Source: Escherichia phage SHEFM2K
Length of the DNA stretch: 64,000 bases
Strand: one strand, 5' to 3'
Sequence record: PQ390715.1
Shown in pieces: positions 53,188-64,000 of this stretch (its first letter is position 1; each line of letters starts with the position of its first letter). A program made the position numbers and the translations under genes. The notes under the pieces are model-generated. The model was given only the letters and a program-made list of their open reading frames with translations, was not told the DNA's origin and did not search any database.

Positions 53188-53290
53188 GTGTAGTTCTCCT
53201 TATATTCCTTCTATAGTACACCAGTACTGAAAGAATGTCAAGGGTTTTCGTTAGGAGGTAAATATGATATAATGAATAAAGGAGAAAATA
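53188..53290. promoter_or_regulatory. divergent promoter region at strand switch
   Basis: minus-strand TTGACA..TACTAT and plus-strand TATAAT (53264-53269) + AAAGGAG. Confidence 0.4.
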
Positions 53291-54400
53291 ATGTTACCTT
53301 TTGGAAGAATGTTAAAGTATGGGAATGTAGCACCTGTACCCAAAAAAATAAAGAAAGTTATTGCAGGATATGATAATTTATATGTACTATATGGTGATGG
53401 ATCGCTATATGGTTGTGGAATCAATAACTATCAACAGTTAAATATTACTGGAACTACTACACAAAATAAATGGGTACTGATTACAAATGGCGTTAATAAT
53501 GCATGGGCTGGTGGATATAATATTTTATATTTTAAAGAAGATAAATTTATAATGCACGGAACTAATGTCTCATTAGGTTTAGGAAATAATACAATTCCAC
53601 TAGGTGGAGTAGATGTAACTTCTTCATTTCCAGATATATCTGATATTAAAATGATATCCATTGGTTTTGATTCAATGCACTATGTTAGTGCTGATGGTAA
53701 AATTGTATATGGAAGAGGTATGAACACAAATGGTTCTGTTGGTTCAGGTAGTACTTACTCACAGAGTACTTTTACTTCAGTACTGAATAATGGCACTAAT
53801 CAGGTTATTGATATATTTGGTAACGTTAATAATACAGTGCTTCTAACGTCAAATGGCGAGCTTCGTGCGTGTGGTACAAGTGCTTATGGTTCCATAGGAA
53901 ATGAAACTGGTAAGTGGACATCGTTTGGTTTAAAATTATCTGGCACTAAAATAATGGGTGGTAATGCGTATAGTACGCTTGCATATACAAATGCGGGAAT
54001 GTACCACACAGGGTGGCAGTTAAATGGGGAACTGGGAAATGGTTTAGATACTAACGTACAGGTATATCCATTTCAATTTAACTCTAAAACAATAGATAGC
54101 AAGATAGATAAAATTGCTAAATCATCATCTGGGTCATATGTTAATATGTACTCAACAACAGAAGGAAAGATATATACTACAGGTGCATATGGTAAAAACG
54201 GCTCAACTACTGCATTGAATTTGTTCACCAATACACTAACACTTGAAAATTACAATCCAGATGCCGCAGCGTTGTATACGTGCACAAACTTCAGTGTTGT
54301 ATATGATGGTAATGAAACTATTGCTGTAAGTGGTAGTCCTACATATGTACCAGGTGACGTTGCCGCAAATAGATGGACCACAATTCCATTACCCAAGTAA
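53291..54400 (+). CDS. RCC1-like repeat (beta-propeller) protein, FamE
   Basis: N-terminus MLPFGRMLKYGNVAP; repeated G-x-N-x-x-G-x-h-G-x-G units (YGCGINNYQQL, YGRGMNTNGSVGSG, GWQLNGELGNG). Confidence 0.75.
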   Translation: MLPFGRMLKYGNVAPVPKKIKKVIAGYDNLYVLYGDGSLYGCGINNYQQLNITGTTTQNKWVLITNGVNNAWAGGYNILYFKEDKFIMHGTNVSLGLGNNTIPLGGVDVTSSFPDISDIKMISIGFDSMHYVSADGKIVYGRGMNTNGSVGSGSTYSQSTFTSVLNNGTNQVIDIFGNVNNTVLLTSNGELRACGTSAYGSIGNETGKWTSFGLKLSGTKIMGGNAYSTLAYTNAGMYHTGWQLNGELGNGLDTNVQVYPFQFNSKTIDSKIDKIAKSSSGSYVNMYSTTEGKIYTTGAYGKNGSTTALNLFTNTLTLENYNPDAAALYTCTNFSVVYDGNETIAVSGSPTYVPGDVAANRWTTIPLPK

Positions 54401-54406
54401 TACGAT

Positions 54407-54436
54407 GCCAGTACTTGATACTGGCTTTCTTATTTG
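54407..54436 (+). terminator. intrinsic terminator of inter-paralog cassette
   Basis: gccagtac-ttga-tactggc hairpin then tttcttatttg; followed by TATAAT 54449-54454 and AAGGAGG. Confidence 0.55.
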
Positions 54437-54469
54437 TATTAAATATAGTATAATGATAAAGGAGGAACT

Positions 54470-61804: not shown

Positions 61805-62984
61805 ATGTTACCTTTTGGAAGAATGATGAATTATGGGAATATTGCCCCTGGCAAAGATACTGTTGTTAAAATTAATAGTGATGAAAATTCAATAAGCGTA
61901 TTATACAGTGATGGGTCATTATATATGCGTGGACGGAAACCAATTATCAAAAATGGGAGTTACTGGTTCATCTTTTTTAGATAGATGGGTTTTATGTCCT
62001 TATAGTGTTGATGATTTCTGGAGTTCTTTATATTGTACTATAATTAGAACAAAACAAGGGGAATTGTACTATAGTGGAACTAACTCAGTTTTTGGTATAT
62101 CATCTTCTGTTTCAACATGGACTCGTTGTGAATCATATTTTGGATCTATTTCTCCGAGTTCAATAAAAGATATAAAAATAACATCATCAACCAGTACTAA
62201 CAATTCCATGTTAATACTAACAAGTGACGGTCAGTTATATGGTATAGGCATGAATGGTGCAAGTGAATTGGGTACAGCAACTACACCAATTACATCTCCA
62301 CTCTTAATAGACACTAGTGTATCTGCAATTGCATCTAGTGAAATGAGCAGAAACTTTCACTATATAAAAGATGGTATATATTATCGTTGTGGTGAGAATA
62401 CTTTTTATCAATTAGGAACCGGTGATAATAATCCTATTACTACTTTTACTGCATTGAATCTTGGTAGTTCTCATGTAATTGCAGTACAAGCTACACGATG
62501 GGTAACACGTTTGATTGTTCAAAGTAGTACATCTGCTTTGTCTTTAATGGCGGCTGGTTGGAACACACAGTTGACTATAGGTGGTTCTGAAAATACTGCT
62601 ATAATAAGGTCATCATTTACTACAAATCCCTATACCGATATAACAGCAAATTCATTCGATAAACTTTCACCAGTATCCTATGTTAATGCAATAAAATCCA
62701 GTACTAACATTATTAATACGAATGGTAAGGGATATAATTCTAATGGTGCTGGATTAGGCCGCAACGCATTCTCTGGGAATTATGGTTCAATATTACCAAT
62801 AGAATTCTTTGATGATAGTGTTGACTTATCACATGTTGAGTGGTTTGGTACGATTGGTAATGGTTCAGTATCGGTAGTTAGTATAGGTGAGGATTTATAC
62901 TGGACTGGAAACCCTGGGTATTTTACTGAACAAGGTGAGACTGGATATATATATAAATTCAAAAAGTGCATTCCTTTTAGATAA
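61805..62984 (+). CDS. RCC1-like repeat protein, FamE, with apparent +1 frameshift (possible pseudogene or sequencing error)
   Basis: leader ORF MLPFGRMMNYGNIAP from ATG 61805 stops at TAG near 61985; RCC1 body continues in +1 frame (track ORF 61908-62984: GNQLSKMGVTG, RCGENTFYQLGTGD). Confidence 0.5.
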
Positions 62985-62991
62985 ACACAAT

Positions 62992-63021
62992 GCCAGTACT
63001 TGATACTGGCTTTCTTATTTG
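62992..63021 (+). terminator. intrinsic terminator of inter-paralog cassette
   Basis: gccagtacttgatactggc + tttcttatttg. Confidence 0.55.
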
Positions 63022-63055
63022 TATTAAATATAGTATAATGAATAAGGAGGGAATT

Positions 63056-64000
63056 ATGTTACCTTTTGGAAGAATGGTTAAGTACGGGAATATTGCACCA
63101 GTTCCGGTAGTTCCTACAATAAAAGATTTTAAGATTGGCTTTTCACATGAAGTGTTATTGGACAGTGCAGGTGATGCATGGGGTATTGGATACAATACAG
63201 ATGGGCAGTTAGGCTTTTTGGATGCAAATACCAATTCACTAGGTGCGTGGTCGAAGATATATACTGATGTTCGATTAATTGGTGTTACTGCCAGATATAC
63301 AGTTGTAGTTACTAATAATAATAGAATACTATACGCAGGAAATAACTTAATTTCTAGTACTACCACGCTTGGGTGGACCGATATAACTGCCAGTATGGGT
63401 CCAGTTGCAGTGGATAGCATCGATGCATTATATTGCACAGATGGCATGATGCATATTAAAACTGCTGATGGTTCTTTATACGCATATGGACGTAATATGA
63501 ACGCAAACAGTGGTGTTACTGGTGGTGTTATTAGTGTTGCAACTAAGGTTAATTTGCCTTCTGCTGTAAATGACATGCGATATACGTTTAGTTATGGTTC
63601 AGTACTATGTCGATTGGATACGACTTCTATATACGCATGGGGACGAAACACAAATGGTGAATTAGGCCAGGGTAATACAACAGCTATCGTTACACCAAAA
63701 CTATTGTCTGGTGCTTCTATTGCAATGGGTACTTCGTATAATGCTACTGCAATTGTTTCTGGTTCTGCATCGTTAGTTACGTGTGGTGGTCAGAACAGTG
63801 GTCAGTTGGGTAATGGTATTACTACTGATGGTAATGTTTACGTATATGCTGCTAGAACATACCCTGGCGATCTTAATACTATAAGAAGTCCAGTGGATTG
63901 TAGTACAACGTACACCTCTGCATTTATGAGTCCAGATGGTATATATTACACTGGTGCTAACCGAAGCATGTTTGGTGGTATTAGTGGTGCTGCTACCGTT
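63056..64000 (+). CDS. RCC1-like repeat protein, FamE, 3' end beyond window
   Basis: MLPFGRMVKYGNIAP; frame open to window end; GIGYNTDGQLGF, WGRNTNGELGQGN, TCGGQNSGQLGNG. Confidence 0.7.
   Translation, partial: MLPFGRMVKYGNIAPVPVVPTIKDFKIGFSHEVLLDSAGDAWGIGYNTDGQLGFLDANTNSLGAWSKIYTDVRLIGVTARYTVVVTNNNRILYAGNNLISSTTTLGWTDITASMGPVAVDSIDALYCTDGMMHIKTADGSLYAYGRNMNANSGVTGGVISVATKVNLPSAVNDMRYTFSYGSVLCRLDTTSIYAWGRNTNGELGQGNTTAIVTPKLLSGASIAMGTSYNATAIVSGSASLVTCGGQNSGQLGNGITTDGNVYVYAARTYPGDLNTIRSPVDCSTTYTSAFMSPDGIYYTGANRSMFGGISGAATV

Follow-up and report, generated by a model that had tools for sequence, protein, structure and literature searches.

The 64,000-nt stretch of Escherichia phage SHEFM2K analyzed here (PQ390715.1; hereafter the window) contains, at positions 53188-64000, a tandem array of RCC1-like genes with a common N-terminal leader. 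The phage is a Rak2-like jumbo coliphage (Asteriusvirus), and we propose that the array, of which this region covers the first part, encodes late-expressed virion accessory proteins. Each gene would fuse a flexible N-terminal tag of 12-16 residues to a compact ligand-binding domain, the tag would act as a virion-incorporation signal that is kept on the mature protein, and the units would be late transcription units that are shuffled at the cassettes between them. We put the probability of this general mechanism at about 60%.

Nine plus-strand genes (53291-64000) open with the leader MLPF[GAV]RMxxY[GA]N, which agrees with the first-pass annotation of this DNA, allowing for the variable positions [GAV] and [GA]. 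The length of about 360-400 aa given there holds for genes 1-7 (369-400 aa), but gene 8 is frameshifted and gene 9 is cut by the window end. MLPF[GAV]RM is found at the nine gene starts (the first gene coordinates in Table 1) and nowhere else on either strand of the whole window. The intergenic gaps are 69-72 nt, with the exception of 8 nt between genes 3 and 4. Upon alignment, the intergenic cassettes are on average 84% identical in nucleotide sequence, the first 15 codons are 85% identical in nucleotide sequence and the leader is 77% identical in amino acid sequence, whereas the mean amino acid identity of the bodies is 27% (range 21-32%). The contrast between a conserved 5' part and diverged bodies that had been claimed is thus real. 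Codons 1-7 of the nine paralogs show 97% DNA identity, synonymous sites included.

Further analyses revealed that the leader is portable. Homologues whose bodies are just 37-52% identical to that of gene 6 retain M[LI]PFxR..YGN, and the consensus M-[LI]-P-F-x-R-h-h-x-Y-[GA]-N (h, hydrophobic; 12-16 residues), which we refer to as the tag, heads RCC1, Kelch, Laminin_G_3, Gly_rich_2 and unassigned bodies. In a 361-kb metagenomic phage scaffold (L006), 10 of 10 tandem genes open with MIPF[AV]R..YGN in other codons, the junctions are mostly 8-12 nt long and without the cassette, and the bodies include one Kelch propeller and one Gly_rich_2 protein (19065-19985 and 13406-14206). Phages E9.1, 121Q and G17 possess a tagged glycine-rich protein of 245 aa (unit J). 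In phage CBB, all seven of CBB_548-554 carry the tag (locus L028, 8769-14037), and CBB_536/537 form a tagged pair apart from the main array and on the opposite strand (locus L031, 6369-7690). The motif is found in every annotated gene of the three arrays (9/9, 10/10 and 7/7), with R6-to-I in CBB_552 and CBB_554 as the exception. The expectation of a constant N-terminal module on variable bodies is therefore borne out by a leader that heads unrelated folds and is, as described below, predicted to be disordered and to lie apart from the propeller.

Searching IMG/VR with a degenerate DNA version of the tag gave 21 matching stretches, 19 of which are on contigs of 348-378 kb (including 121Q and CBB). 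The 53 tagged open reading frames (ORFs) in this database represent no fewer than 10 body families, several of which are of the Laminin_G_3 (ConA-like lectin) kind. A tblastn search with a 23-residue tag matched 60 phage records, all of them jumbo phages of 310-386 kb whose hosts are Escherichia, Salmonella, Erwinia, Yersinia, Cronobacter, Serratia, Pectobacterium, Klebsiella and Xanthomonas. Judged from these 60 genomes, the tag occurs only in Rak2-like jumbo phages. RaK2 and K64-1 are absent from the tblastn matches; hence this search yielded no link to the Klebsiella depolymerase arrays. P3 is encoded by CCA in 36, CCT in 53 and CCG in 3 sequences, Y10 by TAC in 44 and TAT in 49, and G11 by three codons, counts that relied on a regular expression fixing some tag positions; position 9 is E in 11 of 93 leaders. 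The use of several synonymous codons for conserved tag residues argues for selection on the peptide. In CBB, the sequence 5' of CBB_554 (L028, ~8000-8768) translates as ...GGAVRIIYGDDRSFPNT, which resembles the C-terminus of unit J (...GGGAVRIIWGRGRYYPNNSV), and may hold an unannotated glycine-rich array member.

Published data place the tagged proteins in virions, which agrees with the virion link suggested by the first-pass annotation: tagged proteins were detected by mass spectrometry (MS) in phAPEC6, CBB and GAP32 virions. Eleven RCC1-like proteins were counted in phAPEC6, and eight of these paralogs (gp003, 005, 006, 007, 009, 010, 549 and 551) are among its 62 virion proteins found by MS (PMC7247149). 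We verified the tag on 6 of the 8, and the enrichment of tagged proteins in the phAPEC6 virion has a P of 6e-5. GAP32 gp001, an RCC1/BLIP-II-like structural protein with multi-copy homologues in 121Q and PBECO4 (PMC5259590), was structural by MS and also carries the tag. In CBB, 7 of the 10 tagged proteins are MS-positive, compared to 55 positives among 554 ORFs (P = 6e-6). Given that tagged proteins are found in the particle by MS, the tag most likely directs them there.

Whether the tag stays on these proteins was assessed on the CBB peptide data, which contain three leader peptides, all with a tryptic N-terminus: LLQYGNK (CBB_553, residues 7-13), LFEYANVIIPPNYK (CBB_536, residues 7-20) and YANVIVEYATK (CBB_548, residues 10-20). 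The second spans L-F-E-Y, so that an L-x-E is left uncut. The tag is thus retained on the mature virion protein and is not a T4-type cleaved signal, which contradicts the leader loss considered at first pass.

All nine proteins of the window match RCC1 Pfam families. Eight score above the gathering threshold of PF00415 (RCC1) or PF13540 (RCC1_2), gene 7, at 18.9 bits, stays short of the cut-off of 22, and PF25390 (RLD) is matched by all nine with E values of 1e-14 to 1e-29, all below its 150-bit cut-off. The AlphaFold2 (AF2) model of gene 6 (predicted local distance difference test score, pLDDT, 91.8; predicted template modelling score, pTM, 0.88) has 28 strands, i.e., 7 blades of 4, and its Foldseek matches are UVR8, HERC2, RPGR and RCC1 (E = 2e-19, TM-score up to 0.73). 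Gene 7 is also modelled as a propeller. The RCC1-like propellers proposed at first pass are thereby supported, and the modelled proteins are predicted to have the seven-bladed fold. The 5-7 matches per protein to G-x-N-x-x-G-Q-L-G-x-G were, in contrast, not recovered, as the strict signature occurs only once, in two paralogs; the count of seven blades therefore comes from the modelled fold and not from signature matches. In the gene 6 model, residues 1-17 have a pLDDT below 50, and the propeller begins at residue 21 and fills the remainder, which suggests a disordered leader separate from the propeller; neither a folded N-terminal anchor domain nor a fibre shaft was found in this model. We also considered the leader as a velcro strand closing the propeller and rejected this, as residues 1-17 come out of AF2 either without structure or as a helix of low confidence. 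The paralogs contain ~12% charged and ~40% S/T/N/G residues, and their pI is 5.1-8.2. The matches from sequence searches of the PDB were confined to BLIP-II and RCC1-like domains of eukaryotes; no phage particle was among them, nor any solved virion structure containing these proteins. In BFVD, an RCC1-like propeller is found inside annotated tail-fibre proteins of Pseudomonas phages PollyC and Littlefix. It should be noted that three gene 6 orthologues (P0001, P0005 and P0006) are recorded under 'Escherichia coli'; their contigs of 349-358 kb are probably whole jumbo-phage genomes inside bacterial assemblies.

The cassettes combine a putative terminator with a promoter-like block. The hairpin GCCAGTA-N5-TACTGGC was observed 7 times versus 0 expected from shuffles, and a 33-mer 3' of it, TTGTATTAAATATAGTATAATGAATAAAGGAGG, has 6 copies with at most 3 mismatches versus 0 expected. 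In the seven cassettes, stems of 7-9 bp with 4-5 G-C pairs are followed by TTTCTTATTT and then by the promoter-like block. The hairpin is 19 nt long, with a loop of 3 nt if the stem is taken as 8 bp and of 5 nt if it is taken as 7 bp; the 20-base version with an NNNN loop given at first pass had no matches. In the G17 record, the same hairpins are annotated as terminators (ARNold, -10 to -12.8 kcal/mol). The statement that only genes 3 and 4, 8 nt apart, lack a cassette between them is correct for that junction but incomplete, as gene 1 also has no hairpin. An Rfam search for an RNA family at the leader region gave no match.

The promoter block points to the late class. In 8 of the 9 genes, TAAATA is present at -30 to -32 without a single change, whereas TATAAT is replaced by TATAAC in 2 of the 7 cassettes, and no -35 element was found in the cassette promoter. 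Thus, the earlier view of a middle- or late-class promoter with no clear -35 element is supported as to the late class, but the conserved element is TAAATA and not TATAAT. The sequence GTAAATATGATATAAT of the gene 1 promoter also precedes the first array gene of the distant locus L006, and the gene 1 promoter resembles the CBB late promoter Porf_201, CTAAATATGATATA; Porf_551, 552 and 553 of CBB are themselves listed in the same T4-late-like promoter class (Table S7 of PMC5259590). In phAPEC6, (TA)TAAATA lies 22-70 nt upstream of 12 of the 16 structural genes examined, for a background chance of a TAAATA-type match of 0.028 per 85 nt; the set includes the major capsid protein, scaffold, protease, baseplate, gp228, 229, 231, 232, 238, 242, 245 and 247. 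A phage-encoded sigma factor is annotated for late transcription. Together, these motifs support assignment of the cassette promoter to a late class with a T4-like TAAATA motif. A sigma-70 reading was rejected because a TATAAT-directed start would land inside the Shine-Dalgarno and because TATAAT is not invariant; a generic promoter scan did not pick up the cassette promoter as such.

Comparison with relatives indicated that the array is exchanged unit by unit. The stretch 53188-60000 matches Escherichia phage vB_EcoM_E9.1 from end to end at 98.9% identity and slurp01, SP27, PBECO4 and 121Q at 97-99%, all Asteriusvirus jumbo coliphages of ~350 kb, and in complete relatives the array extends to 10-13 units. 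With body types defined as clusters at ≥88% identity, six genomes contain 22 types in differing orders: H I D A E B C M F in the window, H I D A E B C J F K L G in E9.1, P H I D A E B C M F Q L G in slurp01, D A E B C M F R S G in PBECO4, B N A E C J T F K O U G in 121Q, and P D A V B N C J K Q O L in G17. Shared segments are 94-99% identical, with about 98% as the overall figure for this region, the ends of the high-identity blocks in five pairwise comparisons all lie between ATG-73 and ATG+50, and one body type bears differing leader variants and hairpin loops across genomes. As judged from these alignments, whole units are swapped, lost and reordered, with breakpoints confined to the cassette or leader.

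Taken together, these observations suggest the following mechanism. Each unit would be an autonomous late transcription unit with an intrinsic terminator hairpin, a strong Shine-Dalgarno and a late promoter whose TAAATA at -31 ± 1 is presumably read by a gp55-like sigma factor of the phage. At most units, a ~110-nt repeat runs from the terminator through the promoter and the Shine-Dalgarno into the leader, and this repeat would provide homology for recombination within a phage or between co-infecting phages, by which entire units could be deleted, inserted, replaced or reordered, as cassettes do in T4-type phages. The tag would most likely dock its domain onto an exposed virion component, the unassigned 'hairs' of capsid and tail being the obvious candidates, and the particle would then bear a mixed set of accessory adhesins. 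We favour such an external position by analogy with the lectin and propeller folds of the cargo and with the RCC1 propellers in annotated tail fibres of other phages, as well as for the charge-poor, S/T/N/G-rich composition of the paralogs, the uncleaved tag, and the capsid and tail fibres of phAPEC6 that have no assigned protein. Taken alone, however, placement as external adhesins is a tentative call to which we give slightly less than even odds. The same caution applies to a more far-reaching version, possible but a shade short of an even bet, in which the tag is a clade-wide uncleaved 'plug-in' by which the particle is loaded, on its outside or inside, with any of five or more unrelated binding folds, the array is a shuffling library from which co-infecting phages exchange accessory adhesins or effectors unit-wise, and the 12-residue tag alone suffices to display foreign cargo.

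Several points weigh against the proposed mechanism. The binding target of the tag, the location of the proteins and their ligands are all inferred, and the promoter class and terminator function are deduced from motifs and not from mapped transcripts. Recombination at the cassettes is likewise deduced from comparative breakpoints, and BLAST segments necessarily run through shared sequence, which blurs the exact crossover. The peptides per RCC1 paralog in phAPEC6 are few (1-5), and MS of CsCl-purified virions does not fully exclude co-purifying proteins. Part of the identity of codons 1-7 could reflect translation-initiation constraints. The composition of the phAPEC6 inner body is unassigned, and its authors proposed the RCC1 proteins for it (PMC7247149). 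Finally, GAP32 has tagged proteins, and the CBB authors leave its lack of whisker-like structures open (PMC5259590), so that the tagged proteins are not simply to be equated with whiskers.

The tagged proteins might instead be internal head proteins. The tag would then act like the capsid targeting sequence (CTS) of T4 and bind the scaffolding core of a T4-like prohead, and the cargo would be packed in the capsid, as part of the inner body or alongside it. Leaving the head together with the DNA, it would supply effectors for host takeover or against host defences, and an arms race with these defences would drive the rapid unit turnover. Such a role would fit the T4 internal proteins (IPs), a highly diverse set whose sole common feature is the conserved CTS (PMC3012670), the differences in IP sets among T-even phages (PMC4122927), the T4-like prohead protease, scaffold and portal of the clade, and the phAPEC6 inner body of 91 x 18 nm and unknown make-up for which RCC1 proteins were suggested (PMC7247149); the late promoter and the virion MS data are also as expected for internal proteins. 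Yet the tag has no sequence similarity to the T4 CTS, and LamG, Kelch and RCC1 folds in near-neutral, S/T/N/G-rich proteins point to binding modules rather than to DNA-embedded or enzymatic effectors. T4 removes the CTS, whereas the tag is kept in CBB virions, where LFEYANVIIPPNYK spans an L-x-E that a T4-type protease should cut. A rigid 40-kDa propeller must unfold to traverse the tail tube, which the ejection of this cargo would require, and the few peptides fit poorly with an inner body that we estimate at ~19 MDa from the published dimensions. We therefore regard an internal location as unlikely, though not negligibly so.

That the 5' conservation is a mere by-product of duplication and gene conversion, with a functionless leader peptide on ordinary diverging paralogs, is what the 97% DNA identity of codons 1-7, synonymous sites included, might suggest at first sight, and the breakpoints and reassortment do show active recombination in exactly that zone. 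The motif nevertheless persists across genera with other codons and without the cassette (L006 and CBB), unrelated folds under one tag cannot be mutual duplicates, and the off-array genes CBB_536/537 carry the tag on the other strand. RNA folding of -22 to +45 is insignificant (z about 0); although the Shine-Dalgarno AAAGG is able to pair with CCUUU of codons 3-4, RNA structure as the main cause of the identical first 21 nt was rejected, as the minimum free energy of this segment is no better than that of shuffles (z -1.1 to +0.9). The cross-fold and cross-genus conservation largely refutes duplication as the whole explanation, and we consider it very improbable. Hardly more can be said for true RCC1-type DNA condensation factors that bind or organise phage or host DNA, a role proposed by database annotations, the RCC1-like fold and the phAPEC6 authors' speculation that the RCC1 proteins organise DNA in the inner body (PMC7247149). 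The name, however, was transferred on the fold alone; the nearest structures are the protein-interaction propellers of UVR8, HERC and RPGR, the proteins are not basic, the interchangeable tagged cargo includes lectins and Kelch propellers, and the paralogs are 21-32% identical with no conserved surface identified. This function is the least credible of those considered, with only a very slim chance of being correct.

The features of the array in the window are listed in Table 1. The Shine-Dalgarno of gene 4 overlaps the gene 3 stop codon, and gene 4 is therefore probably co-transcribed with gene 3; in 121Q, unlike in the window, body A has its own cassette. The frameshift of gene 8 is near 61925-61940, at CGTGGACGGAAACC. 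A programmed frameshift was rejected, as this site has no slippery sequence. The gene 8 counterpart in the slurp01 annotation is likewise split into two ORFs, the annotated ORF of unit M in PBECO4 begins well downstream of the leader ATG, and the slot is filled by the glycine-rich unit J in E9.1, 121Q and G17. Given the lack of a slippery site, the same split in slurp01 and the presence of another unit in the slot of three genomes, gene 8 is taken to be an inherited pseudogene. Type G, the last array unit in relatives, is split too, and its tag has decayed (MLPFGRIITSSK).

Table 1. Positions of the genes, cassettes and junctions of the tandem RCC1-like array in the window
Feature	Coordinates	Strand	Remarks
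Putative promoter and Shine-Dalgarno of gene 1, GGTAAATATGATATAATGAATAAAGGAG	53256..53290	+	TAAATA at -32; no upstream hairpin
Gene 1, type H, 369 aa	53291..54400	+	Leader and RCC1-like propeller
Cassette 1/2	54401..54469	+	Hairpin 54407-54425, T-run, TAAATA 54440, TATAAT, AAAGGAGG
Gene 2, type I, 392 aa	54470..55648	+	
Cassette 2/3	55649..55719	+	Hairpin 55655-55673, TAAATA 55688
Gene 3, type D, 400 aa	55720..56922	+	
Gene 3/4 junction, 8 nt	56923..56930	+	Cassette-free; AGGAGGG Shine-Dalgarno overlaps gene 3 stop codon
Gene 4, type A, 369 aa	56931..58040	+	
Cassette 4/5	58041..58110	+	Hairpin 58047-58065, TAAATA 58080, TATAAC
Gene 5, type E, 379 aa	58111..59250	+	
Cassette 5/6	59251..59321	+	Hairpin 59257-59275, TAAATA 59290
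Gene 6, type B, 382 aa	59322..60470	+	7-bladed propeller model, residues 1-17 predicted disordered
Cassette 6/7	60471..60541	+	Hairpin 60477-60495, TAAATA 60510
Gene 7, type C, 396 aa	60542..61732	+	Propeller model, pTM 0.81
Cassette 7/8	61733..61804	+	Hairpin 61740-61758, TAAATA 61773, TATAAC
Gene 8, type M, frameshifted pseudogene	61805..62984	+	Leader ORF 61805-61984 (59 aa), body ORF 61908-62984
Cassette 8/9	62985..63055	+	Hairpin 62992-63010, TAAATA 63025
Gene 9, type F, 314 aa visible	63056..64000	+	Cut by window end

The first 53 kb of the window contain only six ORFs of at least 200 aa, and the GC skew switches sign at ~48 kb; the array therefore appears to adjoin a block of small ORFs transcribed in the opposite direction. 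Positions 1-53000 resemble a dense block of small genes, no tRNA genes were found within 1-53000, and the G+C content is ~0.31 at 1-26 kb and ~0.37-0.40 at 28-48 kb. A second paralog array occupies the minus strand at 48384-53187, with more than 20 back-to-back ORFs of ~60 aa each, many of which open with MN(K/T)xHKEFY or MHKEYY and finish with LLIFRY, LKLISI or similar; its transcription points away from the RCC1 array. In E9.1, 121Q, slurp01 and G17, its members are annotated as hypothetical proteins, and the unit number varies.

If the proposed mechanism is correct, it would give a testable function to 10-15 virion proteins per genome, now called 'DNA condensation protein' or 'hypothetical', in ~60 jumbo-phage genomes. 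It would also tie together proteins that looked unrelated before, the RCC1 arrays of coliphages on one side and structural proteins with Kelch or LamG domains in CBB, GAP32 and Erwinia phages on the other. It also bears on the make-up of the unassigned hairs and inner body in these phages. A retained 12-residue incorporation tag would, in addition, be useful for display or packaging of cargo in therapeutic jumbo phages.

The genes themselves have been described. The RCC1-like 'DNA condensation protein' paralogs of 121Q, PBECO4 and phAPEC6 and GAP32 gp001 are the same genes (PMC7247149; PMC5259590), and the window units are 98-99% identical to those of E9.1, slurp01 and PBECO4. The two papers cover copy number, the RCC1 domain and MS detection, and we found no mention in their text of the leader, the cassette, unit shuffling or a link to the CBB Kelch, LamG and Gly-rich proteins. 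In our searches of the literature on RCC1 with jumbo phage, virion or propeller, the phAPEC6 paper was the sole relevant match, and the Sharanji and UE-S1 papers do not mention the array genes. The RCC1 paralog array and its virion association are already known and hence not new, having been published for phAPEC6, GAP32, 121Q and PBECO4; with these multi-copy genes on record and with analogues in T4, the initial impression of an arrangement foreign to all described phages has to be withdrawn. Three features seem to be new: the retained tag, which is clade-wide and heads several folds, the cassette with its late promoter, and the documented shuffling of units.

Among known systems, RCC1 proper, the chromatin-bound Ran guanine nucleotide exchange factor, has only the fold in common with the window proteins, which are not basic. 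Fibres of the T7 gp17 type also combine a constant N-terminus with an exchangeable binding domain, and phages use RCC1-like propellers in fibre proteins. The constant part here, however, is a 12-16-residue peptide predicted to be disordered, in contrast to a folded anchor domain of ~150 residues, and there is no fibre shaft and no indication of trimerisation. The likeness to T4 IPI, IPII, IPIII and Alt extends to a short N-terminal peptide as the sole common feature of diverse virion proteins (PMC3012670), a gene set that varies among close relatives, a T4-like head morphogenesis module and the presence of tagged proteins in purified virions by published MS. The tag differs from the T4 CTS in sequence and in that it is not removed after (L/I)-x-E but stays in CBB virions, and the cargo here consists of lectins and propellers of 200-400 aa.

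The cassettes are most similar in layout to the promoter-early stem-loop (PeSL) cassettes of T4-type phages (Arbiol et al., 2010, PMC2839356; Comeau et al., 2014, PMC4122927). As in PeSLs, a composite of a short terminator-like stem-loop and a promoter is repeated between non-essential genes (seven copies here), and the cassettes bound indels and replacements between close relatives. The carriers here, however, are Rak2-like jumbo phages, the promoter belongs by its motif to the late TAAATA class and not to the strong sigma-70 early promoters, and the units are mostly paralogs of one fold in place of unrelated ORFans. A further difference is that the repeat continues past the Shine-Dalgarno into ~15 conserved codons; since it reaches into the coding sequence, each exchange would keep the tag in frame. 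Regulatory repeats that serve as recombination joints, the concept behind PeSLs, would thus be found in a further phage clade and with a late promoter class, in a variant whose joint runs into the coding sequence and preserves a protein tag.

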